Part shown: piece after piece, positions 6,523-46,059 of the stretch
Layout: each line of letters starts with the position of its first letter
Position numbering within the stretch: position 1 is the first letter of the stretch
Sequence record: JN673056
DNA: 64,000 nucleotides
Source of the DNA: Escherichia phage PhaxI
Direction: 5' to 3' (one strand)
The notes under the pieces: generated by a model
The model's database searches: none
The model's input: the letters and a program-made list of their open reading frames with translations, nothing else
What the model was told of the DNA's origin: nothing
Position numbers and translations under genes: made by a program

Positions 6523-7845
6523 TTAAAACAGCGACTTTATCAGCCCCTTCCTGAAATACGGGTTGCTGTCTTGAGCAATACCGTCAGCAGTCACGTAAAC
6601 CTGCGGGTCTTGGTTAGCCGGAATCTGAACGAACGGGTTAGCACAGATGCCGTAACGGGTTTTGAACGCCATACGCGGAGCGAAGGTGGTTTCACCCTGG
6701 GTGCGGTACATTTCCAGCGGCACATACGGCGCGAAGAAGATACCGGCATCCAGCGCAGTTGCGCCTTTGTATGCCAGAGTGATATATTCTGCTACAGCAT
6801 ACGGGTCAACATAGACGCACATACCGTTGGACAGAACACCAGCGAAGGTCTGGCCAGTCGGGTCAACAGCCAGTTTAGTGTTTTCCTGCAGAACCGGAGC
6901 ATAGTCCAGCATGCCAGACATCGCCAGAGCGGATGCCACGTTCGGAGAACACAGAACACGGTTGCCTTTACCACGACGGGTGTCAACACCGATACCGTTC
7001 GCTTCAACTTCCAGCATGAAAGTCAGGAACTTCCATTTTTCCAGCGCCCAACGACCAGAGATGTCCTGCGCGATATCAACAACACCGTTGGTGCCGAATT
7101 TTTTGAAGCGAACAGCACTGAAGTTCATGGTACGGATGAATTCACGGTTCATTTCCGCCTGAATTTCAGTTACCATCACGTCAGACAGGATATTGTCCAC
7201 GTCTTCGCCGTGAATTGCCATCATATCCTGACGCAGTTCATGGCTGTAATCAGCATACAGGCCGCGAGACTTGGCAGTAACGGTCGCTTTCTGAACGGTG
7301 ATACCAACACGCGCCCACGGATTGGTGGTAGTACCCAGCAGTTCCGCGTCGGTTGACGGCATACCTTTACCGATAGTGGTCACGACAGAGCCGGAACCTT
7401 CGATCTCAGCCTGACTGAAGCCTGACGGGTCGCCAGCCTGCACAGTGCCATCACCAGAGTAGCCGGAATCGGCTTCCTGCATGAACAGTTCTTTACGCGC
7501 CTGAGCGGTAGTAGAACCGTCGCCAACGCCTTGGCGAGCACGCAGTGCGAAGATCTGACCATCAGGACCAGACAGCGGCTGAACGCCGAAGAAGTCCATC
7601 GCGATGTTGATCGGCGCCAGACGTTTTGCCATGTCGATCAGGACTGGCTGCCATTTACCGACAGTGCTGTTTACAGAACCAGGAGCGTCGGATTCGCCCA
7701 GGTTTTTAGCGTTCCACTCGGCCTGGTTTTGCATCAGACGGATGGTTACGTTTTCGGCAGACAGAGGTTGGATGGCTTCAGATTCTTTTTGGAGAACTGG
7801 CAGCCACTGTTTGCGCATTTCTTCGGTTACAAGTTTCTTAGTCAT
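6523..7845 (-). CDS. gp23: major capsid protein, T4 gp23-like
   Basis: 440 aa; IAMDFFGVQPLSGPDGQIFALRARQG matches the conserved T4 gp23 segment IAFDICGVQPMNSPTGQVFALRAV; C-terminal NPYFRKGLIKSLF also gp23-like; strong SD; terminator downstream. Confidence 0.85.
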   Translation of the reverse strand: MTKKLVTEEMRKQWLPVLQKESEAIQPLSAENVTIRLMQNQAEWNAKNLGESDAPGSVNSTVGKWQPVLIDMAKRLAPINIAMDFFGVQPLSGPDGQIFALRARQGVGDGSTTAQARKELFMQEADSGYSGDGTVQAGDPSGFSQAEIEGSGSVVTTIGKGMPSTDAELLGTTTNPWARVGITVQKATVTAKSRGLYADYSHELRQDMMAIHGEDVDNILSDVMVTEIQAEMNREFIRTMNFSAVRFKKFGTNGVVDIAQDISGRWALEKWKFLTFMLEVEANGIGVDTRRGKGNRVLCSPNVASALAMSGMLDYAPVLQENTKLAVDPTGQTFAGVLSNGMCVYVDPYAVAEYITLAYKGATALDAGIFFAPYVPLEMYRTQGETTFAPRMAFKTRYGICANPFVQIPANQDPQVYVTADGIAQDSNPYFRKGLIKSLF

Positions 7846-25200: not shown

Positions 25201-27134
25201 CCTGAGATTGCTCCAGCGCTGGATAACAAGTTAGACTTGTAATACCCTGCATCACGCTGTCCGCCGTCTAGGACGAAGCTGGAGGTCACGTCTGCGCCAG
25301 TATCGTTTTTTACCGACACCAATTTCCAACCATCGTGATTCGCCAAAGGACGGCTAGTCTGCGAGGTGAACGTCACTGTTTCAGTTGTTTCAGTGATGGT
25401 CTTCGTTTTGATTGTGGCCGTGGTACGAATCATCAGCGCCAGCAAATTGATTGACTGGTTAGCATTACCACTGCCTAGAGAAATCTGCAGCGCCGAACCG
25501 ACCGGAGAACCAGTCAAAGACAAAGAACCAGAGATATCGAACTGCGCTTCAGAACCATCAGATTTCGCTGCAGAGTACAACGAAAATTCTGGGGAAAAAC
25601 TATATCCCAATGGAGCAGAAATAGAACCCGCGCCGCTGTTGTCCAACGTCACTTTATACGTTCTGAGAACAGTGTAGTTGATATCCACGGAGCCAGTTGG
25701 TGCTAAAGTCTTGACACCGAATACCGGAAGAGAGAAGATCAGATCTATCATAGAACTCTGGTTAAACTGATTGGATTCCAGTTCAGCAGAGAACATGGTG
25801 ATACCGCTTTCTTCGTAAGACACTTTGGTGATAGTGGACGCGTCCCCAGTCACAACTAAATCACGCATGTACAGGCGGAATTCAGTTGAATTGCGTTCAG
25901 CGGATATACACAACGCCGTGGCTTGAGTAGCGCCGGATGCATTCAATAACTTGTATCGCACAGTGCGAGATATTACTGGAACACCTTTGGAGTTCTTGGT
26001 GACCAGATAATTCCCTGTAGCAACTGCGACAGGCGTGTTATTCAGGACATCGGTATCCCGTGCCTTGTCAACGATCACCAACTCTTCCCCGACGTTTTCG
26101 ATACGACGACCGCGAACATAGGAAATACCTGGTTTCATTACAGACACGAATTTACTTTCGTCGCCGCCATCAGCAGCATTGAATACACCACCATTGTTAT
26201 TGACTTTCAGGTGTTCGCGGATGTCGATCTGGTGCGTTGAAACGTTGTAATCGCCGTTGGTTTCATACGTCCGTTGGGCCAACGTGTCTTCCAGAATATT
26301 ATAGGTGGACTGAGTCACCATAGACTGGATTTTACCATCACGAACTTTGGCCAGTTCAACAAAGTCTTCAACCACAGCATCATAATCAAATCGAGATAAG
26401 ACCAGATCTATTCGAAGACGATGAGCGCCTGGGGCTTTGGAGTTAATCGTTCCCTGAGCATTTGAATAAAGGGATTCGTCTTCAGATTCAGTCACGATGG
26501 TTTCAGTGACTTTAAATCCGACGCGGTGGGAAGACGTGTTCGAAGTTTTATCAACGATAAGAGTTGCGTCATCAACGTCTAGGAACATCCCACGAATGAA
26601 GTAAACGCCTTTCGTCATACGAGCAACGATAGAACCAGTCACAGCAGCCGCGATACCATAACCAATACGAATGAAATTATCATTCACGTCGTAAGTCTGG
26701 AAATACAGATTATCGTTAACATGGAATCCGTCAGCATTACCCGCTTCAGTCATCTCAAGGATAGCCAGCATTGTATCAGGAGCAGACAGATCACGTTCAA
26801 GAGACAACACACGCGCTTTGGCGTTATTGTCTTTCCCCAAAACGTAGAGTTCAGAAATACCTTCCAGATCAGTGAATTCAGTACCACCAGCCAAAGTGAA
26901 TTTCAAAGAGACTGCGGCATTGGTAATCGTCAGACCACCAGGGATAACCATAGAACCATCTTTGAACAAATGGTTGCCCAGTTTTTCAATTTGATCCTGA
27001 AGAATAGTCTGCATCTGGTTCAGTTCGCGAGTCTGAACCTTGATAGGCATCGGACGAAAAAGAATCCGTGAAAAACGTTTCCCAGGATTCCAGTCATCCC
27101 AATACGGGCGACGGTTTAAATTTGTAGATTGCAT
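22296..27134 (-). CDS. very large virion structural protein (1612 aa), putative tail fiber/baseplate-associated
   Basis: Single uninterrupted ORF; Thr/Ser/Asn/Gly-rich beta-type composition; CTAAATAT motif about 34 nt upstream; terminator upstream at 27201-27226. Confidence 0.6.
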   Translation of the reverse strand: MQSTNLNRRPYWDDWNPGKRFSRILFRPMPIKVQTRELNQMQTILQDQIEKLGNHLFKDGSMVIPGGLTITNAAVSLKFTLAGGTEFTDLEGISELYVLGKDNNAKARVLSLERDLSAPDTMLAILEMTEAGNADGFHVNDNLYFQTYDVNDNFIRIGYGIAAAVTGSIVARMTKGVYFIRGMFLDVDDATLIVDKTSNTSSHRVGFKVTETIVTESEDESLYSNAQGTINSKAPGAHRLRIDLVLSRFDYDAVVEDFVELAKVRDGKIQSMVTQSTYNILEDTLAQRTYETNGDYNVSTHQIDIREHLKVNNNGGVFNAADGGDESKFVSVMKPGISYVRGRRIENVGEELVIVDKARDTDVLNNTPVAVATGNYLVTKNSKGVPVISRTVRYKLLNASGATQATALCISAERNSTEFRLYMRDLVVTGDASTITKVSYEESGITMFSAELESNQFNQSSMIDLIFSLPVFGVKTLAPTGSVDINYTVLRTYKVTLDNSGAGSISAPLGYSFSPEFSLYSAAKSDGSEAQFDISGSLSLTGSPVGSALQISLGSGNANQSINLLALMIRTTATIKTKTITETTETVTFTSQTSRPLANHDGWKLVSVKNDTGADVTSSFVLDGGQRDAGYYKSNLLSSAGAISGTYTVVYQYFAHSSGDFFSADSYTSMDYKDIPNYTSSTSGAVYGLADSLDFRPKITNGTSDTDMVRPNTAVILDTEYYLPRIDAIYLADNGVFGVARGISSNNLASPAIPANAMRLYELLIPPYTPNIDDIQIRTIDNRRYTMRDIGKLETRISNVEYYTSLSQLESSAMTQQVFDPITGNPRFKNGIAADPFKDFRLIDDLSEDWMGSIDTENGRLRPFVQQNVVDMTPVGWNKVMDGMVVCNYTPEISVNQEYATTTINVNPYAVFNWEGFLKINPTTDYWFENYYVAPRIINETINTRGTVQEGSVYGTWHTVSVSDRVWEPHGAGGVWGGYPYRTTVSARDVTAYTYTDKTTTTMTGEQIVETQVIPYMREIDISFDASGLRPFTRMYAFFSGRDVNLYCKPNGGNFGDPITTDANGAVKGIFRVPQNDTIKFNTGDNVFRLTDSPVDSKSADDTLTNAEIVHKSFGKKQGIQKTFVNTRVLGYTASTRTETSTSEVVVDQWRDPIAQSFMVATKNGGEYIEGVEVFFSTKSRDVPITLEIREMENGLPSHTVITRKTLNPSEVTISTDSSGGTKFTFDYPVYLQASTEFAIVLLANTQDYNAYIAEMGKKNLLSNEYIAKQPYTGVFFTSSNGSTWSPNQMADMKFRIYRCNFAAGQNVVTFDPKLGPKQRPLGLNTLNCVSGSSVVTVFAPGHGLVAGNNVTLSELTGGCGFTPEQLNKTFTVTDASYTSFKIDVGTAADSNGQIGGDNASFLGNYLVDMFYASVTNSALEGSILKLEYRYRDATSNSMSDWAEFETDTDVALPTEGIYRQVGDFQIRATMTRSENNVYTAPMIDGDDLSVIFNSYGVDPFEDVFKYVTKDIGFDNPCSTVKLFFGAMLPSQSSMKVQVKLLRAGQEMDSVDWEDVTPTSPLVNDGSTFFEYEYDKTVASNNPFVGLKVRALVRGNRVAPPSFKDFRLIALA

Positions 27135-27167
27135 TTTGATGCTCCATCGATTGCCATTTTATAGAGA

Positions 27168-27174
27168 TATTTAG
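27168..27174 (-). promoter_or_regulatory. late-promoter-like motif CTAAATAT
   Basis: About 34 nt upstream of the 1612-aa gene, downstream of a terminator hairpin. Confidence 0.4.
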
Positions 27175-27200
27175 TATACAGCCAATAAACAGATAGAAAT

Positions 27201-27226
27201 AAAAACCCCGCCTAAGCGGGGGTTTT
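27201..27226. terminator. hairpin terminator
   Basis: CCCCGC-CTAA-GCGGGG hairpin flanked by A-run and TTTTG. Confidence 0.55.
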
Positions 27227-27291
27227 GTTAAACAGTTACGTTATAATGTTTACTACATCATTAAAATATTGATTAATTTACTACTATGCTG

Positions 27292-29535
27292 TTAATCAGT
27301 ATACGCCATCAAGAACATAATAAGCTCATCATAGCGTACTCCGTACCTTACTCCTGCTGGTTTAACTATTACAACTTCTTCTAACGTTTCTGGATTAATG
27401 ATTATTTCAGAAGACGCTTCCCATTCGTCCTTGCACCAGAATGCGTAATCCTCTGGTTTAAGTCCGTGCTTTGTCAGGATAGAACCAACAGTTTGCGCAC
27501 CAACGCCGAAGTGGACTCGTGCAGACTCTTCTCCCTTAATTTCTATAGCGTCAGTAAACTTATAGCGAATAATATTATTGCGAATTTCATTAGCCGCTTC
27601 CCTTTCCGCACTCTCGTTTGTTGCTGGGGTTTTTACCTTCAGTGTTTCATCGGAGGTGCTTATTGTTCCCGTTGCAGCATAGACAACAGACCATCTATGT
27701 GATGTATATCCTAATACGGTCGTATTGTCTGTATCAGGCATAAATCCATTGTATCCACCAATCTTAAGGTCGCCATTTGGGTTTCCGGATGACGTTTTAC
27801 CATCATAACTTCTCAGAGTTACTCCTTTCGTTCCGGCAGTGGTATCTACCAAGATACCAGCGTTGGTAGAACCTAGAAGCTGAATTCCACTATTATCATT
27901 ACGCAAATCCTGCACAGGTGCTTCAAGTACAGTTGCTGTAAATTTCCATTTTGTATCGGAATAAAATTCAGCAGGTGAAGTATCATCACTTTGTATGATT
28001 ACCGCTTGTTTGCCAGATTCTCTTCTACGACACCAGCAATATTTTTCTGGGTTGGATCCCAGTTACTAGAGACAAGCACCCCATCAAATTCTACTAATGA
28101 TTCAAAAGGTTTACCTACTGCACGCGTTGGGGTTTGGGACAAAAATACCCCAGTTCCAATCAAAGAAATTGTTATACGTACCAACATTATCATCTATCTG
28201 ATACCCACGAGTGCATAATTCGCCAAAATAACCATAGAATCGCAAGTTACCAGCAACTTGGGTGTCACTGCTCACCCTTTTAACAACACGTACCGCACAA
28301 GGTACATCAGCAGGCCAAGTGCCTTGTGTGATGTTCTCTGAATGTCCACCGAATACGCGAAGGCTATCTGTACTTTCAATCCAGAAGCTACAGTTACCGG
28401 TTGCATGGTGCGGGTCGTATATATGAATGCGGGTATTATTATTATCGCCACTCTCTGATCGTTCGAAGAAGAAACCACAGTCAACACGTTCGAAGTTAGG
28501 ATTCATAATGGAATGGTAATAAGCACCACTATTGCTACCACCTACAGTTGGGCCAGGTTTGAACTTGATACCAATCTTAACACCACGTGCTCGTGGGTTC
28601 TCCATTACACAGAACTGCTGAGATACACGCACTGTTGTTTGAGTTTCATTTTCTGGTGCAATAGCATAGGCGATAACGTCAGTGTGGTTACTTGGGTTAA
28701 TTACTGTTGGATTTATAACGTGGCAGAAATCATGACTCATGCGAATACAGGTAATGTTATTGGCACCTGCCACAATCACTGTCCCAGTGAAATCCAGATA
28801 GCGAGTTGACATTACATCCTGGGTATATGAACCGTCAAATTTCATTACGAGGCTATTCGTAATGAGATACTTAGCCCCAGGTCTGCCAACCAACTTACCG
28901 AAAGGTATCCCCTCTAGCCACACTAATGCTTCCAACATTGAGGCAGTGTCATTAGTAACCCCATCTCCAATCGCACCAAACTCTTCAAATGATTTTATTG
29001 TAGTAACCCGATGGGCAATTTGGTCAATTGTTGGACCATACTTTGTTAGGTCAGTTATAAGAGACGTAGCCCCAACACTAACCCAAGCACCCACGCCAAT
29101 CCCGCCAGATTCTTCTGGTGTTGAACTGGCAGGTACACTTTTAGGCAATGCCCCATCCCAACGGTATCTACCATCTGTAAAAGTAACCAATTCATTCTTG
29201 GTATTAACAGTTACACCAGTAGAGAATGAACCAGGTAGAGTTACATACTCTTCACGAGTAACAGCTAATGCACCAAGGTCTACATTACCTCCAGAATGAA
29301 CCAATACACCAGCAGTATTAAGACTGACGGCAGTAGTACCAGCACCAAGGTCAGTAGGTAAGGAATAAGCTCTCTGTGTTACTTTATCATAGATGACTTT
29401 ATAGCCACTTAATACAGCACCGATAGAGAAGTAAACAACCTCAGATTGCTTAACTCCAAAGTGACGAGCTACTGCTTGCTTGTTGGTTAAGATTCCAGTT
29501 GAACCTTTTCCACCTTGTGAGAACAGTTCGTTCAT
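27292..29535 (-). pseudogene. tailspike/tail fiber gene with C-terminal intramolecular chaperone-like domain, apparently interrupted by two frameshifts
   Basis: Three ORF pieces: frame A 28111-29535, frame B 27999-28193, frame A again open from 28062 to 27292 with no ATG (track start is GTG at 27915); C-terminal piece has SDETLK and YGVRYDELIMFL, typical of autocleaving chaperone domains. Confidence 0.5.
28111..29535 (-). CDS. tailspike N-terminal/central portion (474-aa ORF)
   Basis: N-terminal domain VYFSIGAVLSGYKVIYDKVTQRAYSLP...YRWDG shared with the 1036-aa tailspike; beta-helix-like repeats. Confidence 0.6.
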   Translation of the reverse strand: MNELFSQGGKGSTGILTNKQAVARHFGVKQSEVVYFSIGAVLSGYKVIYDKVTQRAYSLPTDLGAGTTAVSLNTAGVLVHSGGNVDLGALAVTREEYVTLPGSFSTGVTVNTKNELVTFTDGRYRWDGALPKSVPASSTPEESGGIGVGAWVSVGATSLITDLTKYGPTIDQIAHRVTTIKSFEEFGAIGDGVTNDTASMLEALVWLEGIPFGKLVGRPGAKYLITNSLVMKFDGSYTQDVMSTRYLDFTGTVIVAGANNITCIRMSHDFCHVINPTVINPSNHTDVIAYAIAPENETQTTVRVSQQFCVMENPRARGVKIGIKFKPGPTVGGSNSGAYYHSIMNPNFERVDCGFFFERSESGDNNNTRIHIYDPHHATGNCSFWIESTDSLRVFGGHSENITQGTWPADVPCAVRVVKRVSSDTQVAGNLRFYGYFGELCTRGYQIDDNVGTYNNFFDWNWGIFVPNPNACSR

Positions 29536-37638: not shown

Positions 37639-39403
37639 AGCGCACCTCTGGCGTAACAACCACATCACCAATCTTGAATACTTGGTTTTGTGTAGCCTGT
37701 ATGTTCTGGTTCAGTCCATCCGGTAACACGACTATGGTCACCCCTTCAGGGTTATAGTTAGAGACCGTGATCTGCTGAAGGTCTACAACCCCATTTGCAT
37801 AATCCACAACCCCTGTTTTTTGAACTAAAAACTCTTTTGTCGTGTCATTGTTATTCACTTTATACATGTTCAGATCGCCATTATCGTCGCGCATGTAGTA
37901 AGTGAAATCCACCTCGGCAGGAAGCGGTTTGAACCCCGTTATTTTCACAGAACCAGGTTTGATACTTCGTCCATAACTGAATGTGAAACTGTCTAAGGCT
38001 CCATAATCAGGTTTGAAATGGCGTTTATAACCAACTGAAGTAATATTCGAGTTGATAGAACGTTCCATTTTTGTAATTGCTTCCTGCAATATTTCTTTGT
38101 CAAACAATTGGTCAAATCCGCCGAGATTATTTTCACCCCATTTAACGATACTGTTTCCAACAACAACTTTCATCTGTTCTTCAACGTAGACTGTAGAAGT
38201 AGGATCCCAAAATATAGTCGTTGAGACTTGGATATATGTGATCTCGGAATCTACCACTTTGGGGGTGATAGATCCCACATTATACTTGTCCAGAGCAGCA
38301 ACGATATCGGCCTTCTCAGCGTCCGAAAGTGTCTCACCAACAGAAGGTATAACAGCGATGTAAACATAGCCAGAATCAGGAGGAGACAGCGTGTCACCAC
38401 CATATGATTTAGCTCGGGAGACGTTGGAGAATAACCTTTCAGTCAATACACCATAATCTGTTTCTGTAACCGCAGCACCATCAGCCTGATAAGCTAAAGG
38501 AGCCAACCGTTTAGTGTCCTCAATAGATTCCGGATCGTCCCCACCTGCGCTACGTTCGGAAACCAATTCTACATCGACCTGGTTAAACCCGCCTATGGAT
38601 GACGCTGATGACAGGCTTGTGATATCATTCCCATCAGCACCAGAAGTTTCTAAGTATTGAAGGAATATGACGTTCCCATCTTCTACTCGACGCGAAAGAT
38701 AACCATCTCCAAATTCAAACACATACAGACCGTCAATACCCAATTCTACGAAATACAGGTAGGCATATTGGCTCAGATCAAATGGAATGTTGTAACGTTG
38801 ATATGTCGTCGAAACGTCGGAAGACTCTGATTCTTGTACTTGCACGACCATATGATTGATATCGACATTCCCAGAAGGAATCGTGTATGTTGAAATCGCG
38901 CTTCCTTCAACATCATATGTCTTGTACAACCAATTCCCCTGTATCAACTTTACATTATTGAACATGTAATAACCGTCTGCGGTCAACGTTGCCGACACTG
39001 GTTTCTCAACAGTAAAGTTGTAGGAACTGCCGTCTTTTGCCCCAACGAACATCACACGCCGATCCATGATGATCTCATTGGGGGCTGTGCTGGCGTCATA
39101 AGGCGTAACTTTGATGTTGACATACATGTATGCTGCCCGATAGTTGTCAGGCGTGTAGGAAAGAAATGCAGCAGATAAACCGACGTTTGAACGTTGATTT
39201 GCTGTCTTCAAATGGCCTTCACCATTAAGCATGTTTTGCATAAAGGCTATGGCGTTCGCGTCAGATGCCAACAAACGAATAATCGCACTAAGACCAGAAC
39301 CTTCAAAGTCATAATCTTTAAAGGTGGGATCAGCTTTCATTCGCTGTTTAATAATGTATTCAAATGCTCTGACGTCGAGTGAAGGAACTGTTTGCGTGGC
39401 CAT
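37622..39403 (-). CDS. gp6: baseplate wedge protein, T4 gp6-like
   Basis: FKDYDFEGSGLSAIIRLLA matches T4 gp6 FLDYDFEGSRLNVLCDLLA; GGDDPESIEDTKRLAP matches GGGDPEDIERIRELGT; ATG at 39403 with SD GGAG (track start 39454 is TTG). Confidence 0.8.
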   Translation of the reverse strand: MATQTVPSLDVRAFEYIIKQRMKADPTFKDYDFEGSGLSAIIRLLASDANAIAFMQNMLNGEGHLKTANQRSNVGLSAAFLSYTPDNYRAAYMYVNIKVTPYDASTAPNEIIMDRRVMFVGAKDGSSYNFTVEKPVSATLTADGYYMFNNVKLIQGNWLYKTYDVEGSAISTYTIPSGNVDINHMVVQVQESESSDVSTTYQRYNIPFDLSQYAYLYFVELGIDGLYVFEFGDGYLSRRVEDGNVIFLQYLETSGADGNDITSLSSASSIGGFNQVDVELVSERSAGGDDPESIEDTKRLAPLAYQADGAAVTETDYGVLTERLFSNVSRAKSYGGDTLSPPDSGYVYIAVIPSVGETLSDAEKADIVAALDKYNVGSITPKVVDSEITYIQVSTTIFWDPTSTVYVEEQMKVVVGNSIVKWGENNLGGFDQLFDKEILQEAITKMERSINSNITSVGYKRHFKPDYGALDSFTFSYGRSIKPGSVKITGFKPLPAEVDFTYYMRDDNGDLNMYKVNNNDTTKEFLVQKTGVVDYANGVVDLQQITVSNYNPEGVTIVVLPDGLNQNIQATQNQVFKIGDVVVTPEVRYVQRS

Positions 39404-39443
39404 GATAATCTCCATCACCTGAGTTTGAATATGGTGTTGAAGA

Positions 39444-39450
39444 TATTTAG
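39444..39450 (-). promoter_or_regulatory. late-promoter-like motif CTAAATAT
   Basis: About 41 nt upstream of the gp6-like ATG at 39403. Confidence 0.4.
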
Positions 39451-39766
39451 CCAACGGGAATCAAAACGCTCGCGCGCGTTTAATTTATTCGAATATACTC
39501 GCGAGGGGGCTGACGCCCTCGCTCGTAACACCGCCTTGACAGGCAGTCCCATTCCGCAGCCATGGAGGCTGCTTCTCGTTGTTCGTTAACACTCACAACT
39601 CGAAGGGCACCGCGTTAAGATACAGTTTCTTGATGTTGTAGAAAAGTAGTTTTTACCTATTAATAATCACTGTCATTATTTTATTGGCCATTCCTGCGTT
39701 TATATTCAATAAACGTATCCCCAATATAATAATGGAGACATTTAATCAATTCGGTGAGGCTCCGGA

Positions 39767-40336
39767 ATGCACATTAACACAGCAATCATGAAACACATTA
39801 TTCCTTTATTGGCAAAATACGAAGGGGAACGTGCCACGAAAATCCCTTTTGGAACAATCACAGATGAAGTGAAACGCCTGACGGGTAAAAGTATCAATTT
39901 CCGTCGCGTTGTTGAATCTGCGTTAGAGTTGGCCCGTTCTGATTTACAAAATCCAACATTTTCATTTAATATTGACGTAACTTCTTCACTTCGACAAGAA
40001 TTGGAAGAATCATCACAAGCGCGGCGCGATCGTTTCCGTCATTTATATGTTCGTAACGAATTTTCCGAAGGTCGTGTTGGTATGAAACTGGAGTCTATTC
40101 GTTCTGATATTTGCTTCACTGTCAACTATGTTTTAGAGCCAGAGAGCCAGCGCATTTATTTTGGCGCGATTATCGGTTTCTATGGGAACTATATTAATGG
40201 TTGGGCAGAACGTGTTGGAATAAAAGAAACCCAGAACAATCATTCCACACCTTCTACCCATTATATGACGCATGAAGCTGCTGGCGAATATGTTTACCTT
40301 CTGCGTCGTGTTGTGAAGTTAGAAGTGTTAAAATAA
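39767..40336 (+). CDS. hypothetical protein
   Basis: 189-aa ORF diverging from the structural block. Confidence 0.5.
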   Translation: MHINTAIMKHIIPLLAKYEGERATKIPFGTITDEVKRLTGKSINFRRVVESALELARSDLQNPTFSFNIDVTSSLRQELEESSQARRDRFRHLYVRNEFSEGRVGMKLESIRSDICFTVNYVLEPESQRIYFGAIIGFYGNYINGWAERVGIKETQNNHSTPSTHYMTHEAAGEYVYLLRRVVKLEVLK

Positions 40337-40393
40337 CGCTTTATTCAATAAATAATTGTAGTAAAGTTAGTTGCATGGAAGGGAGGGAACACT

Positions 40394-40540
40394 ATGTTTT
40401 ACATGATGTTACTCCTCATCCTCCTGATCGGGATTACCTGCTCTCTCCTGGGTCTACCCGATCAGTCCGGTAAACAGTTGCCCACTTCGGCGCATCCGGT
40501 TTTGAGTGAAGGTTCGTCCGCACTGCTGTGGGCAGTGTAG
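40394..40540 (+). CDS. small hydrophobic peptide (48 aa), not in ORF track
   Basis: ATG at 40394 preceded by strong SD GGAGGG; MFYMMLLLILLIGITCSLLG signal-like N-terminus; sits at the start of the RNA island. Confidence 0.3.
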   Translation: MFYMMLLLILLIGITCSLLGLPDQSGKQLPTSAHPVLSEGSSALLWAV

Positions 40541-42811
40541 CTCAAAGGGGAGAGGACTTTTCAAATTAGCTGGGCTGCGGTAAAGTATTAAACACGAGGG
40601 AAATAACACAGTGGGAGTCGGGTTTGCAGCCCAAAACCAGTTAACCCTATTCTCAGGGCTGTTGATAGAGCGTAATAGCACCCTCGCTGGTGTCAGTGGA
40701 CGCACTGACGTCGAGACGAAACTCCTGTGTAGCGTGATAGCTCAGAAAACGAGAGCACCCGTGCAGTCGACACACATATAAGGGAGTCGGGGCGCTAATC
40801 TCCATCACGCGACAACATTATGAATCTCATAGAGGGTTCATAATGTTGCGTCAAAGGGCAACAAGAGGATTCCTGTTGGTTGAATTAACTTGATTCATAG
40901 TTCTGCTGATCTTCCCGGATTCAGAAGAACACCGACAGGACGAGGCCGGATGCGTAAGTTCCGGCAAATCGATGGTGAGGTGGTGCATTGATGACACGGG
41001 GTAGCGCTCAGAAGTGTGGTTCGATTCCGCACCCTCGCCAACAAAAATAAAAGGTTTTATCAATAACGGGTTACAAAGTATAGTTAACTCACTGAACGGC
41101 AAGCTGTTTGAGTCCTGGCCACTCATAGCGATGTGAGACCAAGACAGGTAGGTTTAGGACTCAAACAGGTTTTCGTTCTCGTTGCTTGCGACTTTGCGGG
41201 TTTTTAGAAACTGACCAAGCAAATAACTGCTAATGATTCCGAAGTTCTGATGGCGGCGTAATAGCCTATAAGTCAGTGAGGTCTTCCGATTCCTCATAAC
41301 AAAATTCGGCGCACTAAAATAGGCGGGAGGGTGTGATTAATAAGCTCCCGCCGAACAATGAGCGGAGCGTGTACTTAATAGGTCGATGGGAGCAGACTAC
41401 TTCTGAGAAATCAGGAGCGTACATGAGAAGGTTCGAGTCCTTCCTCCAATCCCAAAGCCGTTATATCTGACTGTCCAAAGGGGATAAGCTCCTGAGTAAG
41501 CAGAGGTGGGTTGCCTAAGTCAGATGGGATGTAAGGTCAGCGCTGGCTAAGCATTTGGGTTCGACTCCCTAAAGCGGCTCCACATCTTTGAGGGCATTCC
41601 GCGTCAGACGCGAGACTGTATGGAGTTTCAGGAGAAAGGCAACTTAAATCCGAGGCAGTAATGCCCTATGAAATATCGGAGCCTGTTGTACACTGAGTGC
41701 CCTCAAAGATGTGTCTCACAGCGCATCAGTTTGCAGTTATGCAAGCTTCAATAAGTTAAAACGCGCCTCGGGCGTTATGGGATAAAGCCTTAAACAGTGG
41801 AATCCCCAGGGCTAGCAATCCCTGTCAAAGAAGTAGCCGTGTGGGGGTTTGCCCCCACAACGCAAATCGAAGTTCTTTGGGTATATCTTTTAACCCTCAA
41901 GGTCTGTACACAGAAGTGGCCGTCCCATGAGTAAGTTAGGCGATATACAACATGTTGGGTCGAACCTGTTAAGCCCAGAGAACTTCGATTTGCGTACTTG
42001 AGAGAGCGTTGTATGAAATAGGGCAATGCCTTGCAGACCTCGACGCCTACACATTCTAGACACTGGTGGGCGCTGGCGAAGATCTCAATATAAGCTGGTC
42101 ATCAAGGGTAGCTCCCTGACCGGACGAACAATGAGAGGCCGAACTAAGGGGAAACCCGAGACAGGCGCAGTATTTTCAAGTTCGCAAAATGAAGAGCATT
42201 AAAGAACTCGCAAAGGACCTGAAAATTGGTATCCCTGGCTTGTACCACTGAGTGTTCTTCATCTTTGGGTGATTCTATGTTGTCGGGCTATCAACCCATG
42301 CTTGCTGGAGCAACCAGCGGCTCTGAATCAACCAGCCAGCCTCGTTTGGTCCGAGCGTTAGAGGACAAGTTGCTTCTGTATGGAAGCTGCGAGTTGTAAC
42401 ATTTGGTTGCAACTTTGATGGCTCTGGATTTTATAAACCATGTCTATGGGTGACGCGGGATCTTTAGTACCAGAGCCATCAAAGTTGTGTCCAACCCGAT
42501 CTTGCAAGCCCGTATCCCTGTATGGTCAAGACTTGCAAGTGGAAAGCCCTGGAAAAATAAACGCCTGTGGTGAGGCTACGGTGCAAGCCAAAGACCCACA
42601 GAAGCGCGTTGCCGTGAGGCGCACAAACAGGCATGCATGAACTGATCATGCACAAACGGGATAAATGGTTGAGAGACCTTGGTTGGTCACACAATAAATT
42701 ATGGGGCGATAGTTTAAGGGACAGCTGTCCGGACAGCGAGTCCCCAGAGAGAACAGGCTGGCGGCCAAACCAGCAAGGAGAGGTGAAAATCCTCAGACCC
42801 CGCCAAATTTT
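40541..42811 (+). ncRNA. ORF-poor structured region with tRNA 3'-half-like modules and long hairpins; candidate large structured RNA(s) or degenerate tRNA-like genes
   Basis: No credible ORF on either strand for about 2.3 kb; T-arm+acceptor+CCA modules near 41015-41040, 41427-41454, 41555-41582, 42779-42805; GAAA-capped 7-bp helix at 41400-41417; 12-18 bp perfect inverted repeats. Confidence 0.35.
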
Positions 42812-42837
42812 GGCCCCGTAGCTCAGTGGTTAGAGCA
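42812..42837 (+). other. tRNA 5' fragment (acceptor strand plus D-arm) without a matching 3' half
   Basis: GGCCCCG-TA-GCTC-AGTGGTTA-GAGC is a canonical acceptor/D-arm, but no anticodon arm or complementary 3' acceptor strand follows; abuts the endonuclease gene. Confidence 0.5.
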
Positions 42838-42874
42838 GACTAAGTAATACCATGTGTGTTGATTGGTATTACTT

Positions 42875-43516
42875 ATGAAAACTTGTGAATTTTGCTCAAG
42901 GGATTTTGGGACCGTACAAGCATTTTGTTCTCATGTGCGACAGTGTAAACAAAATCCAGACAGAATAATAAGAAACAGGTCTGGGGTTAATAATCCCATG
43001 TATGGTAGGAAGGGTAGTAATCAATTCACCAAAGCTATAAAGTTGGGTTTGGAACCACCTAAAGTTAGGGAAGAAACTTCCCGCGCTATATCCGAAAAAT
43101 TAAAAGGAAAGGCGTGGACACAGGAAAGAAGAGAATCCTTTTCTATGAGGATGAAGGAAATCGTAAAAGAAAATCCTGATTCCTATAGTAGCCACAATGT
43201 GTGTGGTAGGTCAAAAAAGTTTGTGATAGACGGGGTTTTATTTCATTCTTCTTGGGAAGTGGTCTTTGCCAATTATTTGAATAAAAGGTCTTTGGCCTGG
43301 GTGAGAGAAGTAGAATCGATACCTTATATTTGGAAAGGTAAACAGCATTTATACTTTCCTGATTTTTACATACCGGAGTTGGATATGTATGTAGAAGTCA
43401 AGGGGTATGAAACGGAAAGAGATCATGCTAAATGGAGTTGCATTGATAATTTGATAATAATCAGGGAAACTGAGATAAATAAAATTATCTCTGGTGAAAT
43501 TATTTCGGGTCTGTAG
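42875..43516 (+). CDS. homing endonuclease-like protein (zinc finger, NUMOD-like motifs, PD-(D/E)xK-like C-terminus)
   Basis: ATG at 42875; CEFCSRDFG...CSHVRQC finger; NPMYGRKGSNQ and ETSRAISEKLKGK motifs; C-terminal FPDF...ELDMYVEVKG nuclease-like motif; stop overlaps the 5' end of tRNA-Met. Confidence 0.55.
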   Translation: MKTCEFCSRDFGTVQAFCSHVRQCKQNPDRIIRNRSGVNNPMYGRKGSNQFTKAIKLGLEPPKVREETSRAISEKLKGKAWTQERRESFSMRMKEIVKENPDSYSSHNVCGRSKKFVIDGVLFHSSWEVVFANYLNKRSLAWVREVESIPYIWKGKQHLYFPDFYIPELDMYVEVKGYETERDHAKWSCIDNLIIIRETEINKIISGEIISGL

Positions 43517-43583
43517 TTTAATAGGTTAGAACAACGGACTCATAATCCGTCAGGTCTCAGTTCAAATCTGGGTGGACCCACCA
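43507..43583 (+). tRNA. tRNA-Met (anticodon CAT); could equally be initiator or lysidine-modified Ile type
   Basis: Hand-folded cloverleaf: acceptor GGGTCTG/TGGACCC, D-stem GTTT/GAAC, anticodon stem ACGGA/TCCGT with loop CTCATAA, T-arm CTCAG-TTCAAAT-CTGGG, discriminator A, encoded CCA. Confidence 0.85.
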
Positions 43584-43689
43584 AACACAATGAGAGAAAC
43601 TGAAGTGAGAAAGCTCGGTTAAACGAGGGAGTAATTCAGGAGTATCTCACCACTAAATAAACCAGTTGTTCAATAAACAATTGGTGAGT

Positions 43690-43890
43690 ATGATGAAAAC
43701 GTTCGGTGATTTTCTTACTGAGTGGGATGGTCTCGCTACCGACAACAAAGAGATTGTTGAGTTTGTTGAAAAGCGAGGCGATAAGTGGGTTGTCCTTGAC
43801 CACACCAAGACTAAAGTTCTTGGGACACATGACACCAAAGCTGACGCGGACGCCCAATTAAGGGCGATCGAAGCGAATAAACATAGTTGA
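43690..43890 (+). CDS. hypothetical small protein (66 aa)
   Basis: ATG at 43690 with SD GGTGAG; CTAAATA motif about 35 nt upstream; sits inside the RNA island. Confidence 0.4.
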   Translation: MMKTFGDFLTEWDGLATDNKEIVEFVEKRGDKWVVLDHTKTKVLGTHDTKADADAQLRAIEANKHS

Positions 43891-44064
43891 AGGGTTCTAT
43901 ATTATGAAGAATATTTGGGCGGTGATTTCCAACAGAATTCGCGCTAGTTGGGAAGGTCGGATGGTGAGCATCAAGAACGGGTCTCATCCAAAAACTTACG
44001 ATCGTTATGATCCTGCCCTGGATCTTCATGCAGAATAAAGAGTGTTTACGAAAGTAAGAATAGA

Positions 44065-44140
44065 GACGATGTAGTTCAGTCGGTAGAACGGTGGACTGTT
44101 AATCCATATGTCGCAGGTTCAAGTCCTGCCATCGTCGCCA
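44065..44140 (+). tRNA. tRNA-Asn (anticodon GTT)
   Basis: Perfect 7-bp acceptor GACGATG/CATCGTC; D-arm GTTC-AGTCGGTA-GAAC; anticodon loop CTGTTAA; T-arm GCAGG-TTCAAGT-CCTGC; discriminator G; encoded CCA. Confidence 0.9.
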
Positions 44141-44824
44141 AATTGAAGTAGAGTATCTCGAAGCGCCTTCGGAAGTGCGAATCGCGCGATAGCTGCCAAT
44201 GTAAGGCTGCAGGATACAGATACCCAGGGGAGTGAGACCTACTTCATACAATTTCAGAAGTGTAGAGGCTACAGTAGTGCGCACCTCACGGAAAGCTACA
44301 CCGGACACTCTGATACAAATCTACCACCGCGTGGATTAGCTGAGGAAGGATGGCCGATGTCCTCAAGCGTGGCCCAGCACGTGGTGGTAGACCAAACACA
44401 GTAAGCGTTGCAGCCAGCTGTGTATAAAATGGGGTGACTCCACATCGGAAACGATGCCCCAACTTCCAGAAATGGTCGGGCGCGAAGCCTGTAAAGTTCC
44501 AGGAGATCTAACCAGAAGGCACTGGTGCCAGTTAACCAATCGGCGCTGATAAGCGCGGGGAGTTGGGCTACGGCAGATCAAATGCACAATCGGGTGTGAA
44601 GCCCGTCCAAATTACGCTCGGTCAAGCAGTCTGTTTGTAGACGGTCGGTGCGGGTTTTGCAAGACCCAAATTGACCATCAAATAGATGAGGCGCGACTCT
44701 CTGGGTTGATCACCAGGGTGCTGAGGTTCAACCCCTCTAACGGACACCAATAAGTCGTTTCGGTCAGGTCAAGAACCCAGATTTAGGTCATGGCTTGGAA
44801 ATTCTTGACCGAAGCGCAGTATAC

Positions 44825-44913
44825 GGAAGGTTGCCCGAGAGGTTTAAGGGACTCGACTGCTAATCGAGTGGGGCTTTTAGCCCCCGAAGGTTCGAATCCT
44901 TCACCTTCCGCCA
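44825..44913 (+). tRNA. tRNA-Ser (anticodon GCT), type II with long variable arm
   Basis: Perfect acceptor GGAAGGT/ACCTTCC; anticodon stem CTCGA/TCGAG with loop CTGCTAA; long variable arm GGGGCTTTTAGCCCCC; T-arm GAAGG-TTCGAAT-CCTTC; discriminator G; CCA. Confidence 0.9.
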
Positions 44914-44916
44914 AAT

Positions 44917-45002
44917 TGCTTCATAGCTCGAGTGGTAGAGCGCAGGAAAGTTTCGAGAGAACAAGGTGCCTGAGGTCACTGGTTCGAATCCAGTTGAAGC
45001 AA
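44917..45002 (+). ncRNA. tRNA-like RNA lacking a foldable anticodon arm (possible Y RNA-like/tRNA-mimic or tRNA pseudogene)
   Basis: Perfect 7-bp acceptor TGCTTCA/TGAAGCA, canonical D-arm GCTC-GAGTGGTA-GAGC and T-arm ACTGG-TTCGAAT-CCAGT, but 35 nt between them contain no 5-bp stem/7-nt loop; no encoded CCA. Confidence 0.5.
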
Positions 45003-45230
45003 TCAGAATAATGAGTGTGACTTCCTGAAGATGAAGAAGGTGTGCATGCCGACTTCATAACAATCTGGGGTTAAAGGAAGTTAAGAAAGCCGGAGGATAT
45101 GCAAAGGTGAAATGCAATAGCTTTTCATTGTCCTGACGGTTTCGGGTTCGATTCCCGACGCACTCTCCCAAACGCCCATTATCAGAAATTGCTGTGAGTA
45201 GTCTTTCCATCCCCACGATGGTTTAACATA

Positions 45231-45258
45231 GCCCGATCAGAAGATCGGGCTTCTTTTG
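45231..45258 (+). terminator. rho-independent terminator closing the RNA island
   Basis: 8-bp hairpin GCCCGATC-AGAA-GATCGGGC followed by TTCTTTTGT. Confidence 0.65.
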
Positions 45259-45297
45259 TCTATAATAAATAGATCTGACTTGTAAAGGAGGTCTATT

Positions 45298-45531
45298 ATG
45301 GCAACTGCTAAGATCACACCAAACGCAAGTACATGGACGCAAGTCTCAGACGGCACATCTTTGAAAACTCTTCAAGTGACTCACGGTTCTGTGTATCTGT
45401 GTGATAGCCCCAGCGCTCCAACGGGTAACAACGCGCATATCATATATCAAGGAAATATGGTCGTTTTAACCCCGCCGACGGTGGGATGGGTTAAGGCAAT
45501 TAATTCTGATGCGACGGTTATCGTTTCTTAA
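45298..45531 (+). CDS. hypothetical small beta-rich protein
   Basis: 77 aa; SD AAAGGAGG; TATAAT-like element upstream. Confidence 0.5.
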   Translation: MATAKITPNASTWTQVSDGTSLKTLQVTHGSVYLCDSPSAPTGNNAHIIYQGNMVVLTPPTVGWVKAINSDATVIVS

Positions 45532-45540
45532 GGAGGGAGT

Positions 45541-46059
45541 ATGGCCATTTTGACATCTCCCTATTTGGGGAATATGCTTCAGACCCATCGCATCAAAACA
45601 GAAGTCAGATTTTCCGGTTTGTCACAACTTCTAACTTCTGGGGCAACTGGAATAGATTTGTTAACTGTGTTGGATGGGAAGACTCCGAACCCTTCTTCTC
45701 CTACTGGTTTGGCTCCGTTCTTTAAATTATCAGATCACAAATTTCACGCGTTTCCTTATGATTCTATTCTTCCGGTGAAGGTCAATATCGTCGGTTCATG
45801 GTCTGGATCCACTTCAAACAGAACCATGATTGTTGACTTTGTTGGCTCTGTTGGGAACCAGTTATCAAGAAGTCGTGATGCTAGCGTACCGCCGCCGGAC
45901 ACCCTGTCTTTCATTACGTTCTTCAGTGTTGACAAGGATGGGAATCTGGCGACAAACGGGGCGCAAATCAAACTGTACTCTTATGGCGGTGACTTCACTA
46001 TTACTGAGGTCGTGTTGATTGCCGAGCAGGTTGTCCCACTCTATATGACCAGTATTTGA
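45541..46059 (+). CDS. hypothetical protein
   Basis: 172-aa ORF. Confidence 0.55.
   Translation: MAILTSPYLGNMLQTHRIKTEVRFSGLSQLLTSGATGIDLLTVLDGKTPNPSSPTGLAPFFKLSDHKFHAFPYDSILPVKVNIVGSWSGSTSNRTMIVDFVGSVGNQLSRSRDASVPPPDTLSFITFFSVDKDGNLATNGAQIKLYSYGGDFTITEVVLIAEQVVPLYMTSI

Follow-up and report, generated by a model that had tools for sequence, protein, structure and literature searches.

A tmRNA-like tag-template module in a modular tRNA island of Escherichia phage PhaxI

The island and its tag-template module

The window analysed here is the whole of a 64,000-nt stretch of DNA from Escherichia phage PhaxI (record JN673056), and this study concerns the island at 40337–45260, which forms one plus-strand unit closed by a terminator, together with a module inside it, at 41156–41356, that resembles the tag-encoding half of a transfer-messenger RNA (tmRNA). 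This module is the most informative element of the island and had been missed in a preliminary description made from the letters of the window. Salmonella and Escherichia phages of the genus Kuttervirus (Ackermannviridae, ViI-like) are 96–97.5% identical to the region 40300–45300, and by this comparison the window is Kuttervirus DNA; near-identical Kuttervirus sequence is also deposited as 'Pseudomonas phage Pa-sanjiao' and as 'Enterococcus phage Efm 3-10', the hosts of these two records being probably mislabelled. The island had been placed between the last structural gene and the first plus-strand gene, but a plus-strand gene of 189 amino acids (aa) at 39767–40336 (PHROG 3788) comes directly before it, and the next plus-strand genes downstream begin at 45298. 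A syntenic gap is also found in Taipeivirus T765, Agtrevirus MK-13, Limestonevirus Ds9CZ and Miltonvirus 3M, its size being 2.5–5.2 kb. The alignment to related phages that had been proposed in search of covariation does find the island syntenic across Ackermannviridae genera, with covariation in parts. The G+C content of the island is ~0.50, compared with ~0.42 in the flanks, and its GC skew is positive. It contains three canonical transfer RNAs (tRNAs), at least six tRNA-derived RNAs that lack a usable anticodon arm, cassettes with long stems, three tiny open reading frames (ORFs) supported by protein families and a mobile endonuclease gene. The early impression of much more than a simple tRNA cluster was thus well founded, given the tRNA mimics without anticodons and the stem-enclosed cassettes resembling processing units. 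The best-kept part, 40337–41340, is present in 14–15 of 16 Ackermannviridae loci, and the island is modular, with close relatives differing by the gain, loss or swap of whole modules.

A BLAST search for distant relatives of the ORF-free stretch of the island returned matches of ~130 nt in the intergenic DNA of many unrelated phages. The reading frame was revealed by an alignment of the copies from CS01 (Drexlerviridae), TR2 (Schitoviridae), the lambdoid phage MII_001, where the copy lies just downstream of the antiterminator Q, Bas80 (BASEL) and Klebsiella phage RCIP0071. The module and its parts in the window are as follows.

41156–41356, plus strand: tmRNA-like tag-template module (family nhmmer profile, 153 bits, E=2.9e-45)
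41169–41216, plus strand: putative pseudoknot 1 (PK1), whose end lies 11 nt ahead of the resume codon
41229–41258, plus strand: tag, with the resume codon GCU at 41229–41231 and the stop codon UAA following at 41259–41261
41247–41275, plus strand: helix-5 analogue, with the stop codon in its loop
Hairpin 41276–41295, plus strand, and CCGA (41286–89) paired with UCGG (41306–09): pseudoknot a, with compensatory changes
CGCAC (41310–14) paired with GUGUG (41331–35), plus strand, and GGCGGGAG (41322–29) paired with CUCCCGCC (41345–52): pseudoknot b, with compensatory changes

The frame of the window is GCU AAU GAU UCC GAA GUU CUG AUG GCG GCG UAA, which reads ANDSEVLMAA; other phages encode ANDDVVLMAA, ANDDLMLMAA, ANDDQFLAVA and ANEEMYLAVA, the P1 tag is ANDDLMMVAA, and the tag of E. 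coli tmRNA, for comparison, is ANDENYALAA. The frame was tested on 129 retrieved copies, among which there are 33 distinct tag DNAs. Ten sense codons and a stop, following the pattern AND(D/E/N)xxL(M/A)(A/V)A, are intact in every one of the 129 copies, while the +1 frame is closed in all except one of them (128/129). Among the 33 distinct tag DNAs, differences at codon positions 1, 2 and 3 number 1313, 1021 and 2209, respectively. All four synonymous codons are used for the last alanine, tag positions 3–4 are D, E, N or S, positions 6–9 are hydrophobic, and the ending L(A/M)(V/A)A is encoded by two unrelated helix-5 sequences. An ordinary ORF running into the tag could be ruled out, since an in-frame UAG eight codons upstream of the tag is invariant and there is no start codon. 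Taken together, these comparisons show that the tag frame bears the marks of peptide-level selection.

The structure was specified on a non-redundant alignment of 51 sequences, in which pairs were counted and compared with slid partners and with 500 shuffles. The proposed structure has 92.7% of its cells paired, against 39–49% in the slid controls, and 16 pairs show changes on both sides (154 cells), the observed values being reached in none of the 500 shuffles. The outer stem of helix 5 is 99% paired, with one pair switching between G-C and A-U in a ratio of 26:25. The second stem of pseudoknot b is GCCC:GGGC in the family, for which the window has GGCGGGAG:CUCCCGCC instead. In the putative PK1, pairings GUUUU:GAAAC and GG:CC are possible and 99–100% paired, in columns that are invariant. 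In most phage groups the module is preceded by a helix of 9–17 bp with a hypervariable insert of 44–105 nt, the equivalent of the stem of the window's cassette at 41094–41178; the sequence of this helix covaries between families, and its inserts are unrelated to each other.

At the module, sub-threshold matches are obtained to the Rfam families tmRNA_permuted, alpha_tmRNA, beta_tmRNA and tmRNA, and these are mutually consistent in the six loci out of six that were tested. The window scores 20.9 bits against RF04321, whose gathering threshold is 47 (other loci reach 25–31 bits), the beta_tmRNA match has 21.8 bits against a gathering threshold of 84, and the module does not reach the curated Rfam gathering score for tmRNA, standard or permuted. 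The consensus AUAAAUGCcAAcGAUGA of the Rfam permuted and beta models is aligned at the resume codon, the independently derived CCGA:UCGG stem is also paired by the beta_tmRNA model, and the P2-like outer helix of the tmRNA_permuted model falls on the cassette at 41094–41178. Moreover, the profile of the phage family is in register with nt 81–128 of E. coli ssrA, the two resume codons being aligned with each other, as are the two stops. Frame setting in E. coli tmRNA requires U-A at positions −5/−4 of the resume codon (U85-A86). The same dinucleotide is found in the phage copies (AUAAAU-GCA in most of them and AUAACU-GCU in the window), in agreement with the Rfam permuted and beta consensus. 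Like a tmRNA, the module has a GCN resume codon without a Shine-Dalgarno (SD) sequence or AUG, a short tag with a hydrophobic C-terminus of the ..AA type and a stop codon, the latter presented by the helix-5 loop, and pseudoknots that follow the tag.

ARAGORN with default settings finds no tmRNA in any of the module loci. At 95–90% of its threshold it proposes tmRNAs in up to 18 loci, their tags being exactly the ones described here; the standard-order domain proposed in this way was rejected, the 5′ domains being inconsistent between loci, position 3:70 being U:A and one 5′ strand overlapping a promoter-like −10 element. A scan of all loci for acceptors with U70, A73 and G3 recovered ordinary phage tRNAs and chance 7-mers only, none of them in the island of the window, and a tRNA-like domain (TLD) with G3:U70, A73, CCA and an adjacent T-arm is not found in the module. 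Several other candidates were discarded. TL-1, a tRNA-like RNA described below, has an acceptor that covaries, yet its position 3:70 is U:G or C:G. The '...GCUCCA' seen after T-arms, considered as an alanine signature, is the acceptor followed by U73 and CCA of ordinary ends (e.g. of tRNA-Trp in locus L067). A permuted domain formed from the T-arm insert of MII_001 or of locus L030 turned out to be a closed hairpin of 4–6 bp with no CCA and no G3:U70, and for inserts carrying a GGGG box (GGGGAGCUGGA..., GGGGAGC...), tried as 5′ acceptor strand, there is no complementary 3′ strand linked to a T-arm in those loci. Base-pairing of the phage RNA with host tmRNA was discarded too, the predicted duplex having −102 kcal/mol in a crude test, compared with −103 kcal/mol in shuffled controls. 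Decisive in this matter was the complete 48-kb genome of CS01, which has an intact module and in which ARAGORN finds no tRNA or tmRNA and no Rfam family reaches its gathering threshold. Because of this genome and of the negative domain searches, the family is regarded as a template of the tmRNA type for which the phage encodes no tRNA-like half, and the comparative evidence as a whole shows that 41156–41356 corresponds, at the level of predicted structure and frame, to the mRNA-like half of a tmRNA without a TLD of its own. In CS01 the locus (27042–27527) comprises the tag module and no tRNA genes; a polynucleotide kinase is also encoded by this phage.

A pattern scan of viral contigs, in which the pattern fixed the first three codons only, gave at least 120 loci, and a profile search recovered the module in 138 of 139 collected sequences, including Serratia phage 3M. 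Among phage records it occurs in 493 of 50,697 (~1%), the carriers being T1-like and N4-like phages, Ackermannviridae (CBA120 and Ag3 among them), Felix-O1-like phages of ~88 kb, phage 7-11, P1, P7 and lambdoid phages. It is also held by 656 of 5,426 complete E. coli genomes (~12%), with ~150 copies in lambdoid prophages between Q and holin and ~554 on P1-like phage-plasmids. The exact pattern is present in only 4 of ~100,000 species genomes, and therefore the module is not a cellular tmRNA. No copy examined was annotated as tmRNA or otherwise labelled. A contig (L134) from a metagenome-assembled genome assigned to 'Bacillota' holds the tag module as well; it is probably misbinned, or its host mislabelled.

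In P1 the module sits in a regulated lytic context, the C1-repressed ban operon, in the order Pban/Op72, 'dicF-like region', terminator-like hairpin, module, tRNA-Asn, tRNA-Thr ... tRNA-Ile, ban. The P1 DNA between the dmt stop and trnA (AF234172; our locus L138, 575–1272) is otherwise unannotated. A CACAACAGGUAAGGG strand is found after the module and again after tRNA-Thr, for which reason the long flanking stems are interpreted as general spacer (processing) stems, with the module in a 'tRNA slot'. The same observation weakened our alternative assignment of the flanking helix as helix P2 of tmRNA, and general spacer stems seem the more likely of the two on the sequences compared.

Other RNAs, cassettes and genes of the island

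The canonical tRNAs and the tRNA-derived RNAs of the island are listed here.

43507–43583, plus strand: tRNA-Met (CAU), found by ARAGORN; Rfam 64.4 bits
44065–44140, plus strand: tRNA-Asn (GUU), found by ARAGORN; Rfam 77 bits
44825–44913, plus strand: tRNA-Ser (GCU), found by ARAGORN; Rfam 56 bits
40974–41043, plus strand: TL-1, minimal tRNA-like RNA; acceptor GGUGAGG/CCUCGCC, short D-arm, T-arm, discriminator A, then ACA
41386–41454, plus strand: TL-2, tRNA-like RNA; acceptor AUGGGAG/CUCCAAU (6/7), T-arm, C73, encoded CCA (T-arm/acceptor scan)
41457–41582, plus strand: TL-3, tRNA-like RNA with a 126-nt body; acceptor GCCGUUA/AAGCGGC (6/7), T-arm GGGUUCGACUCCC, U73, encoded CCA
44629–44749, plus strand: TL-x, tRNA-like RNA with a 120-nt body; acceptor GUCUGUU/AACGGAC (7/7), T-arm, A73, encoded CCA
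44917–45002, plus strand: tRNA-Ile-derived RNA; Rfam tRNA 48.7 bits, 22-nt loop where a 7-nt anticodon loop is expected
45013–45170, plus strand: TL-last, tRNA-like RNA with a 158-nt body; acceptor GAGUGUG/CGCACUC (7/7), T-arm, U73, then CCC

The three cloverleafs folded by hand in the preliminary description (Met-CAT, Asn-GTT and Ser-GCT) were all recovered at the same positions by ARAGORN and Rfam (56–77 bits), and it is only these three that combine a 7-nt anticodon loop with scores above both the Rfam and the ARAGORN thresholds. An objective scan of the island yielded 12 T-arm candidates, six of which can be matched to a perfect (7/7) acceptor strand no more than 200 nt away, compared with 0.93 expected from shuffles. 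These six are the three tRNAs and the elements at 44629–44749, 44917–45002 and 45013–45170, and the acceptors of TL-1, TL-2 and TL-3 are 6/7 paired in the register of the scan. The tRNA-derived RNAs keep the acceptor stem and the T-arm, often with an encoded CCA, and have lost or replaced the anticodon arm; the bodies of the tRNA-like elements span 65–158 nt, several being followed by an encoded CCA. TL-1, TL-2, TL-3, TL-x and TL-last are called tRNA-like, and not tRNAs, because they fall below the tRNA threshold. T-arm and acceptor modules without matching 5′ halves had been reported at six places. Those at 41015–41040, 41427–41454, 41555–41582, 44722–44749 and 45142–45170 are indeed such modules, but each of the five has a 5′ acceptor partner 40–130 nt upstream, and the one at 42779–42805 had to be given up, as it lacks the T-loop consensus and no convincing pairing was obtained for it.

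The anticodon arm of TL-1 is replaced by a 16-nt stub; its acceptor is GGCGAAG/CUUCGCC or GGCGAGG/CCUCGUC in relatives, and in both Kuttervirus and Taipeivirus the element stands at a constant −210 relative to the tag. In TL-2, a segment that is variable among relatives, a GAAA-capped 7-bp helix takes the place of the anticodon arm (CUUCUGA-GAAA-UCAGGAG, 41400–41417); this is the GNRA-capped helix that had been recognized from the outset, and the match of TL-2 to Rfam tRNA-Sec (16.3 bits) is far under the threshold of 47. The match of TL-3 to Rfam tmRNA covers the T-arm only (10.5 bits, model positions 349–361), and its 3′ strand is AAACGGC in relatives, changing U5-G68 to U5-A68. The T-arm and 3′ end of TL-last are common to six unrelated loci. 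The element at 44917–45002, for which ARAGORN makes no call, is annotated as 'tRNA-OTHER/Undet' or tRNA-Ile in relatives, is kept in many Kuttervirus genomes and is homologous to tRNAs of N4-like and T1-like loci; the expansion of its anticodon loop is ~15 nt, too short for a group I intron, and the gene is presumably non-decoding. A tRNA-Tyr (GUA) is present in S115, pSC20, T765 and MK-13 and absent from the window. In S115 it follows TL-x, and its absence seems to result from a deletion between two ...CACCAA 3′ ends, that of TL-x and that of tRNA-Tyr (44629–44830 in the window compared with 6830–7020 in locus L001).

Further structured elements and signals are the following.

40720–40945, plus strand: structured non-coding domain; long-range closing helix formed by 40720–40729 with 40930–40945
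41057–41084, plus strand: sigma-70-like promoter match upstream of the tag module (TTATCA-16-TATAGT; 9/12, from a consensus scan alone)
41094–41178, plus strand: long-stem cassette adjoining the tag module on its 5′ side (inverted repeat I4, 23-nt arms enclosing 39 nt)
41581–41713, plus strand: long-stem cassette (inverted repeat I3, 24-nt arms enclosing 85 nt)
41860–41995, plus strand: long-stem cassette (inverted repeat I2, 22-nt arms, 95% complementary, enclosing 92 nt)
42403–42494, plus strand: long hairpin (inverted repeat I1, 25-nt arms enclosing 42 nt)
44320–44391, plus strand: stem-enclosed cassette (inverted repeat I5, 14-nt arms, insert at 44334–44377)
45230–45258, plus strand: intrinsic-terminator-like hairpin of 9 bp (6 G-C) and T run at the end of the island

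The long perfect inverted repeats of the preliminary description were found again, with arms of 12–25 nt, and so was the terminator, as a hairpin at 45230–45251 followed by the T run. The domain at 40720–40945, which is present in 14–15 of the 16 Ackermannviridae loci, contains a cloverleaf-shaped element without T-loop consensus (40732–40810; GCGUGAU...AUCACGC) and an 18-bp hairpin around 40811–40850. Compensatory changes are seen in 10 of the 100 pairs that RNAalifold predicts, which is modest covariation support since the sequences are 80% identical. The domain matches no Rfam family, contains no ORF matching PHROG, and is possibly a new structured RNA in its own right; an insertion hot-spot (0–45 nt in relatives) lies inside its D-arm-like stem. 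A match to mir-3119 on both strands of 42403–42494 was dismissed as spurious, reflecting hairpin shape only. The inserts of the downstream long-stem cassettes differ between close relatives, and in S115 the stem of the 41581–41713 type holds a different insert with a T-arm. The insert at 44334–44377 matches the hypervariable insert located beside the tag module in the N4-like contig L085 (E=1.8e-14). More generally, cassettes of 25–45 nt are common to the island and to spacers of N4-like and T1-like phages, where they occur in different stems (44334–44377 in L085; 42192–42255 in L100, L031 and others), which suggests an exchange of inserts between phage tRNA operons.

The protein genes of the island, and the tRNA fragment beside one of them, are given below.

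40394–40540, plus strand: 48-aa hydrophobic ORF at the start of the island (PHROG 8415, E=2.5e-33; strong ribosome-binding site, GGAGGG-N6-ATG)
42813–42840, plus strand: 5′ fragment of the resident tRNA-Met (GGCCCCGUAGCUCAGUGGUUAGAGCA), read from the sequence
42863–43516, plus strand: free-standing endonuclease gene, 217 aa (PHROG 15137 'endonuclease', E=3.9e-77)
43666–43890, plus strand: 74-aa gene (PHROG 3684, E=1.8e-27), annotated in relatives
43904–44038, plus strand: 44-aa gene (PHROG 6110, E=2.2e-26), annotated in relatives

The preliminary description had allowed for an endonuclease-like gene plus one or two tiny ORFs, and in fact four ORFs of the island have family support; the early view that the rest is without protein genes stood, as none of the 10 ORFs in 40.5–42.86 kb matches PHROG, and hidden coding sequence in this ORF-free stretch was rejected on that basis. 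The 48-aa ORF is kept across Ackermannviridae genera and shows a coding-like pattern of change in the alignment between them. The endonuclease has a weak match to Pfam Phage_endo_I (22.6 bits against a cut-off of 29.1), and its gene occurs in one of 16 related loci. Relatives without it have an intact tRNA-Met annotated at the site of the fragment. The intact tRNA-Met of the window, at 43507–43583, differs in sequence from the fragment and overlaps the end of the endonuclease ORF, while a perfect 12-bp hairpin (42841–42875) spans the start. Membership of an endonuclease family, a sporadic distribution among relatives and a position beside a truncated tRNA-Met together point to a free-standing homing endonuclease. 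From these comparisons, the tRNA-Met fragment is identified as the probable remnant of the insertion of the endonuclease gene, the element having supplied a replacement tRNA-Met, and 42813–43583 as a whole looks like a case of homing with co-conversion of a tRNA gene.

Proposed processing and decoding, and competing explanations

The explanation that we favour, and that we hold to be moderately probable when all its parts are taken jointly, is that the island is a plus-strand phage tRNA operon turned carrier of modular small RNAs, which would deliver a free-standing tag-template RNA to be decoded with host machinery. Minihelices of an acceptor and a T-arm are established substrates of RNase P and of the CCA-adding enzyme, as long duplexes are of RNase III. 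On this basis, transcription of the island would give long precursors, on which host RNase P, the enzymes trimming tRNA 3′ ends and the CCA-adding enzyme would act at the tRNA-like ends, and RNase III at the long stems, cutting the precursors into stable small RNAs. As cuts at their ends would yield such stable RNAs, the tRNA-like modules may be seen as punctuation and stabilising ends. A tag-template RNA of ~180–200 nt would be released and, going by the codon evidence, decoded by ribosomes during infection. Decoding would rely on host parts, since no phage tRNA-like domain would then be needed, and could proceed through Ala-tmRNA with SmpB or by loading the template directly into ribosomes that have stalled with the A site empty. 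The outcome would be a phage-specified ssrA-like tag on proteins made from broken messages, or else a free tagged peptide. An extended form of this proposal is possible, though we put it forward only tentatively, namely that many Enterobacterales phages carry a tmRNA without its tRNA half that is loaded into rescued or stalled ribosomes, so that the tag is rewritten or the cell flooded with ssrA-like peptide and the phage steers the fate of truncated proteins, the module being one of a pool of mobile small-RNA cassettes that pass between phage tRNA operons within conserved processing stems; loading might then occur by piggy-back on the host's SmpB and Ala-tmRNA, or along a path that needs no TLD.

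Several points weigh against the favoured explanation. All the processing and decoding steps are ones that we infer, and we know of no route by which a template is brought into the ribosome without a TLD. In none of the loci, and in neither gene order, does the tag have a linked T-arm whose acceptor carries U70 and A73 and is partnered by G3. The tag partly overlaps helix 5, and hence some of the codon constraints could be structural, the columns of PK1 never vary and so offer no covariation, and several of the tRNA-like acceptors are just 6/7 paired. Finally, the profile search found a Dickeya Limestonevirus locus without the module, which must therefore be dispensable in that lineage.

The module might instead be a decoy that imitates the mRNA-like and pseudoknot portion of tmRNA, titrating the host factors bound by this portion (ribosomal protein S1, RNase R and possibly SmpB) and thereby damping host trans-translation. 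Its missing TLD and its strongly kept tmRNA-like architecture would suit this role, and a precedent exists in mirror image in the TLD-only tmRNA of mycobacteriophage DS6A, a similar molecule being known to inhibit tmRNA, perhaps by titration of SmpB (PMC4131195; PMC11915505). A decoy, however, needs no reading frame, whereas all 129 copies keep the 10 sense codons and the stop; nor would it account for the third-position excess, the conservative replacements (D/E, and hydrophobic residues at positions 6–9) or the two unrelated helix-5 sequences that arrive at the same L(A/M)(V/A)A ending. Use of the host rescue machinery, or direct loading, is ranked above a pure decoy for the reason that no frame would be required of the latter, which we judge unlikely. 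Peptide-level selection without a TLD would also be expected if the tag were translated independently, the upstream pseudoknot positioning the GCN codon in the manner of the dicistrovirus intergenic internal ribosome entry sites that start at an alanine codon, and the free decapeptide competing for SspB and ClpX and so protecting tagged proteins. In keeping with this, an invariant element resembling a pseudoknot lies upstream, with its end 11 nt away from the resume codon, and the tags retain the AND(D/E) N-terminus and the hydrophobic ..AA/..VA C-terminus, which we take to be the features of the E. coli tag recognised by SspB and ClpX. But such initiation, with no Shine-Dalgarno sequence and no start codon, has no precedent in bacteria or phages, PK1 is unsupported by covariation, and a competitor decapeptide would be needed in very large amounts, so that we consider this mechanism improbable.

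Scars of recombination and of homing-endonuclease traffic do exist in these loci, such as the tRNA-Met 5′ fragment beside the endonuclease, the deleted tRNA-Tyr and the truncated T-loops of some relatives, and modules are gained and lost between close relatives, all of which could be taken to mean that the island is decaying debris of pseudo-tRNAs with a dead tmRNA fragment. That the tag frame is intact in every copy from at least six phage groups, with compensatory changes in at least 16 pairs, makes this very improbable, as do the retention of 40.3–41.3 kb in 14–15 of 16 loci from several genera and the tRNA-like acceptors, which are far above chance and covarying. Least credible of all is that the 2.5-kb ORF-free stretch is a single, very large RNA with a structure of the kind seen in GOLLD, ROOL or OLE. 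The raised G+C content (0.50 vs ~0.42), the positive GC skew and the adjoining tRNAs would fit, and GOLLD and ROOL often adjoin tRNAs in phages. The suggestion of a GOLLD, ROOL or Y RNA-type molecule in the preliminary description was nevertheless not borne out, as a search of 39400–45600 against Rfam gave no match to GOLLD, ROOL or bacterial Y RNA (YrlA) at the gathering threshold or at E<=10, and any other large-RNA family of Rfam was likewise rejected for lack of matches. The stretch resolves into modules that are complete in themselves, closed by local helices and with CCA encoded at their ends, relatives differ by indels and swaps of whole modules, and one module occurs alone in unrelated phages. 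The processed tRNA operon with a free-standing tag template is accordingly the explanation that we retain.

Relation to known tmRNAs and phage tRNA clusters

A tmRNA is defined by its tRNA-like and mRNA-like halves, and the reduced forms so far known keep the tRNA half only. Surveys of tmRNAs describe standard, permuted, intron-containing and coding-sequence (CDS)-less forms and include 79 phage sequences, their pipeline having required tRNA-like segments. No description of a tag-template-only tmRNA was found in the literature or in the tmRNA database, nor any paper with one of the six tag peptides, and no link between P1 and tmRNA was found in a literature search that did not reach the text of the P1 genome paper. 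The tag-template-only form is a widespread variant of tmRNA and appears to be new. Should a selected family consisting of the tag half only hold, it would challenge the assumption that the template is physically linked to the alanyl-tRNA mimic, and it would point to phage control of ribosome rescue and of ClpXP/SspB-directed proteolysis. This can be tested in the model systems P1, BASEL phage Bas80, CBA120 and the lambdoid prophages of E. coli. The island also illustrates how phage 'tRNA clusters' can store tRNA-derived and cassette-like small RNAs that are missed by tRNA finders and Rfam.

Among the closest known systems is the coding piece of the two-piece (circularly permuted) tmRNA (RF04321/RF01850), with which the module shares a GCN resume codon without SD or AUG in the context AUAAAUGC.AAYGAU, a 10-residue tag of the AND...AA type, a stop codon in the loop of helix 5, pseudoknots after the tag and a long helix directly 5′ of the putative PK1, at the position of P2. 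It differs in having no 5′ acceptor strand, D-loop or partner acceptor piece, and its 5′ helix holds hypervariable inserts where the permuted gene holds the tRNA-like domain. Furthermore, it scores 21–31 bits against the gathering threshold of 47, and the phages that carry it infect Enterobacterales, which themselves have the standard one-piece tmRNA. The CDS-less, TLD-only tmRNAs of mycobacteriophage DS6A, of jakobid mitochondria and of some plastids likewise represent a tmRNA cut to one half, that of DS6A being phage-borne (PMC4131195, PMC11915505). They are, however, the mirror image of the phage module, as they keep the tRNA-like half without the tag, whereas the module keeps the tag half without the tRNA-like half. 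Complete phage tmRNAs, such as those of cluster C mycobacteriophages, Bacillus phage G, a marine methylophage and huge phages, also place a tag template among phage tRNA genes, but they are found by ARAGORN and Rfam through their full tRNA-like domains, whereas the tag module is found by neither at default settings.

The tRNA cluster of T4 offers a parallel for the island as a whole. It yields co-transcribed stable RNAs, 'species 1 and 2', which are processed by the tRNA maturation machinery, and some of its genes lack an encoded CCA. Both are phage tRNA operons with small stable RNAs, those of the island being predicted ones, but the two have no sequence relationship, and the island contains many more non-tRNA modules, together with long-stem cassettes and a tmRNA-like module.

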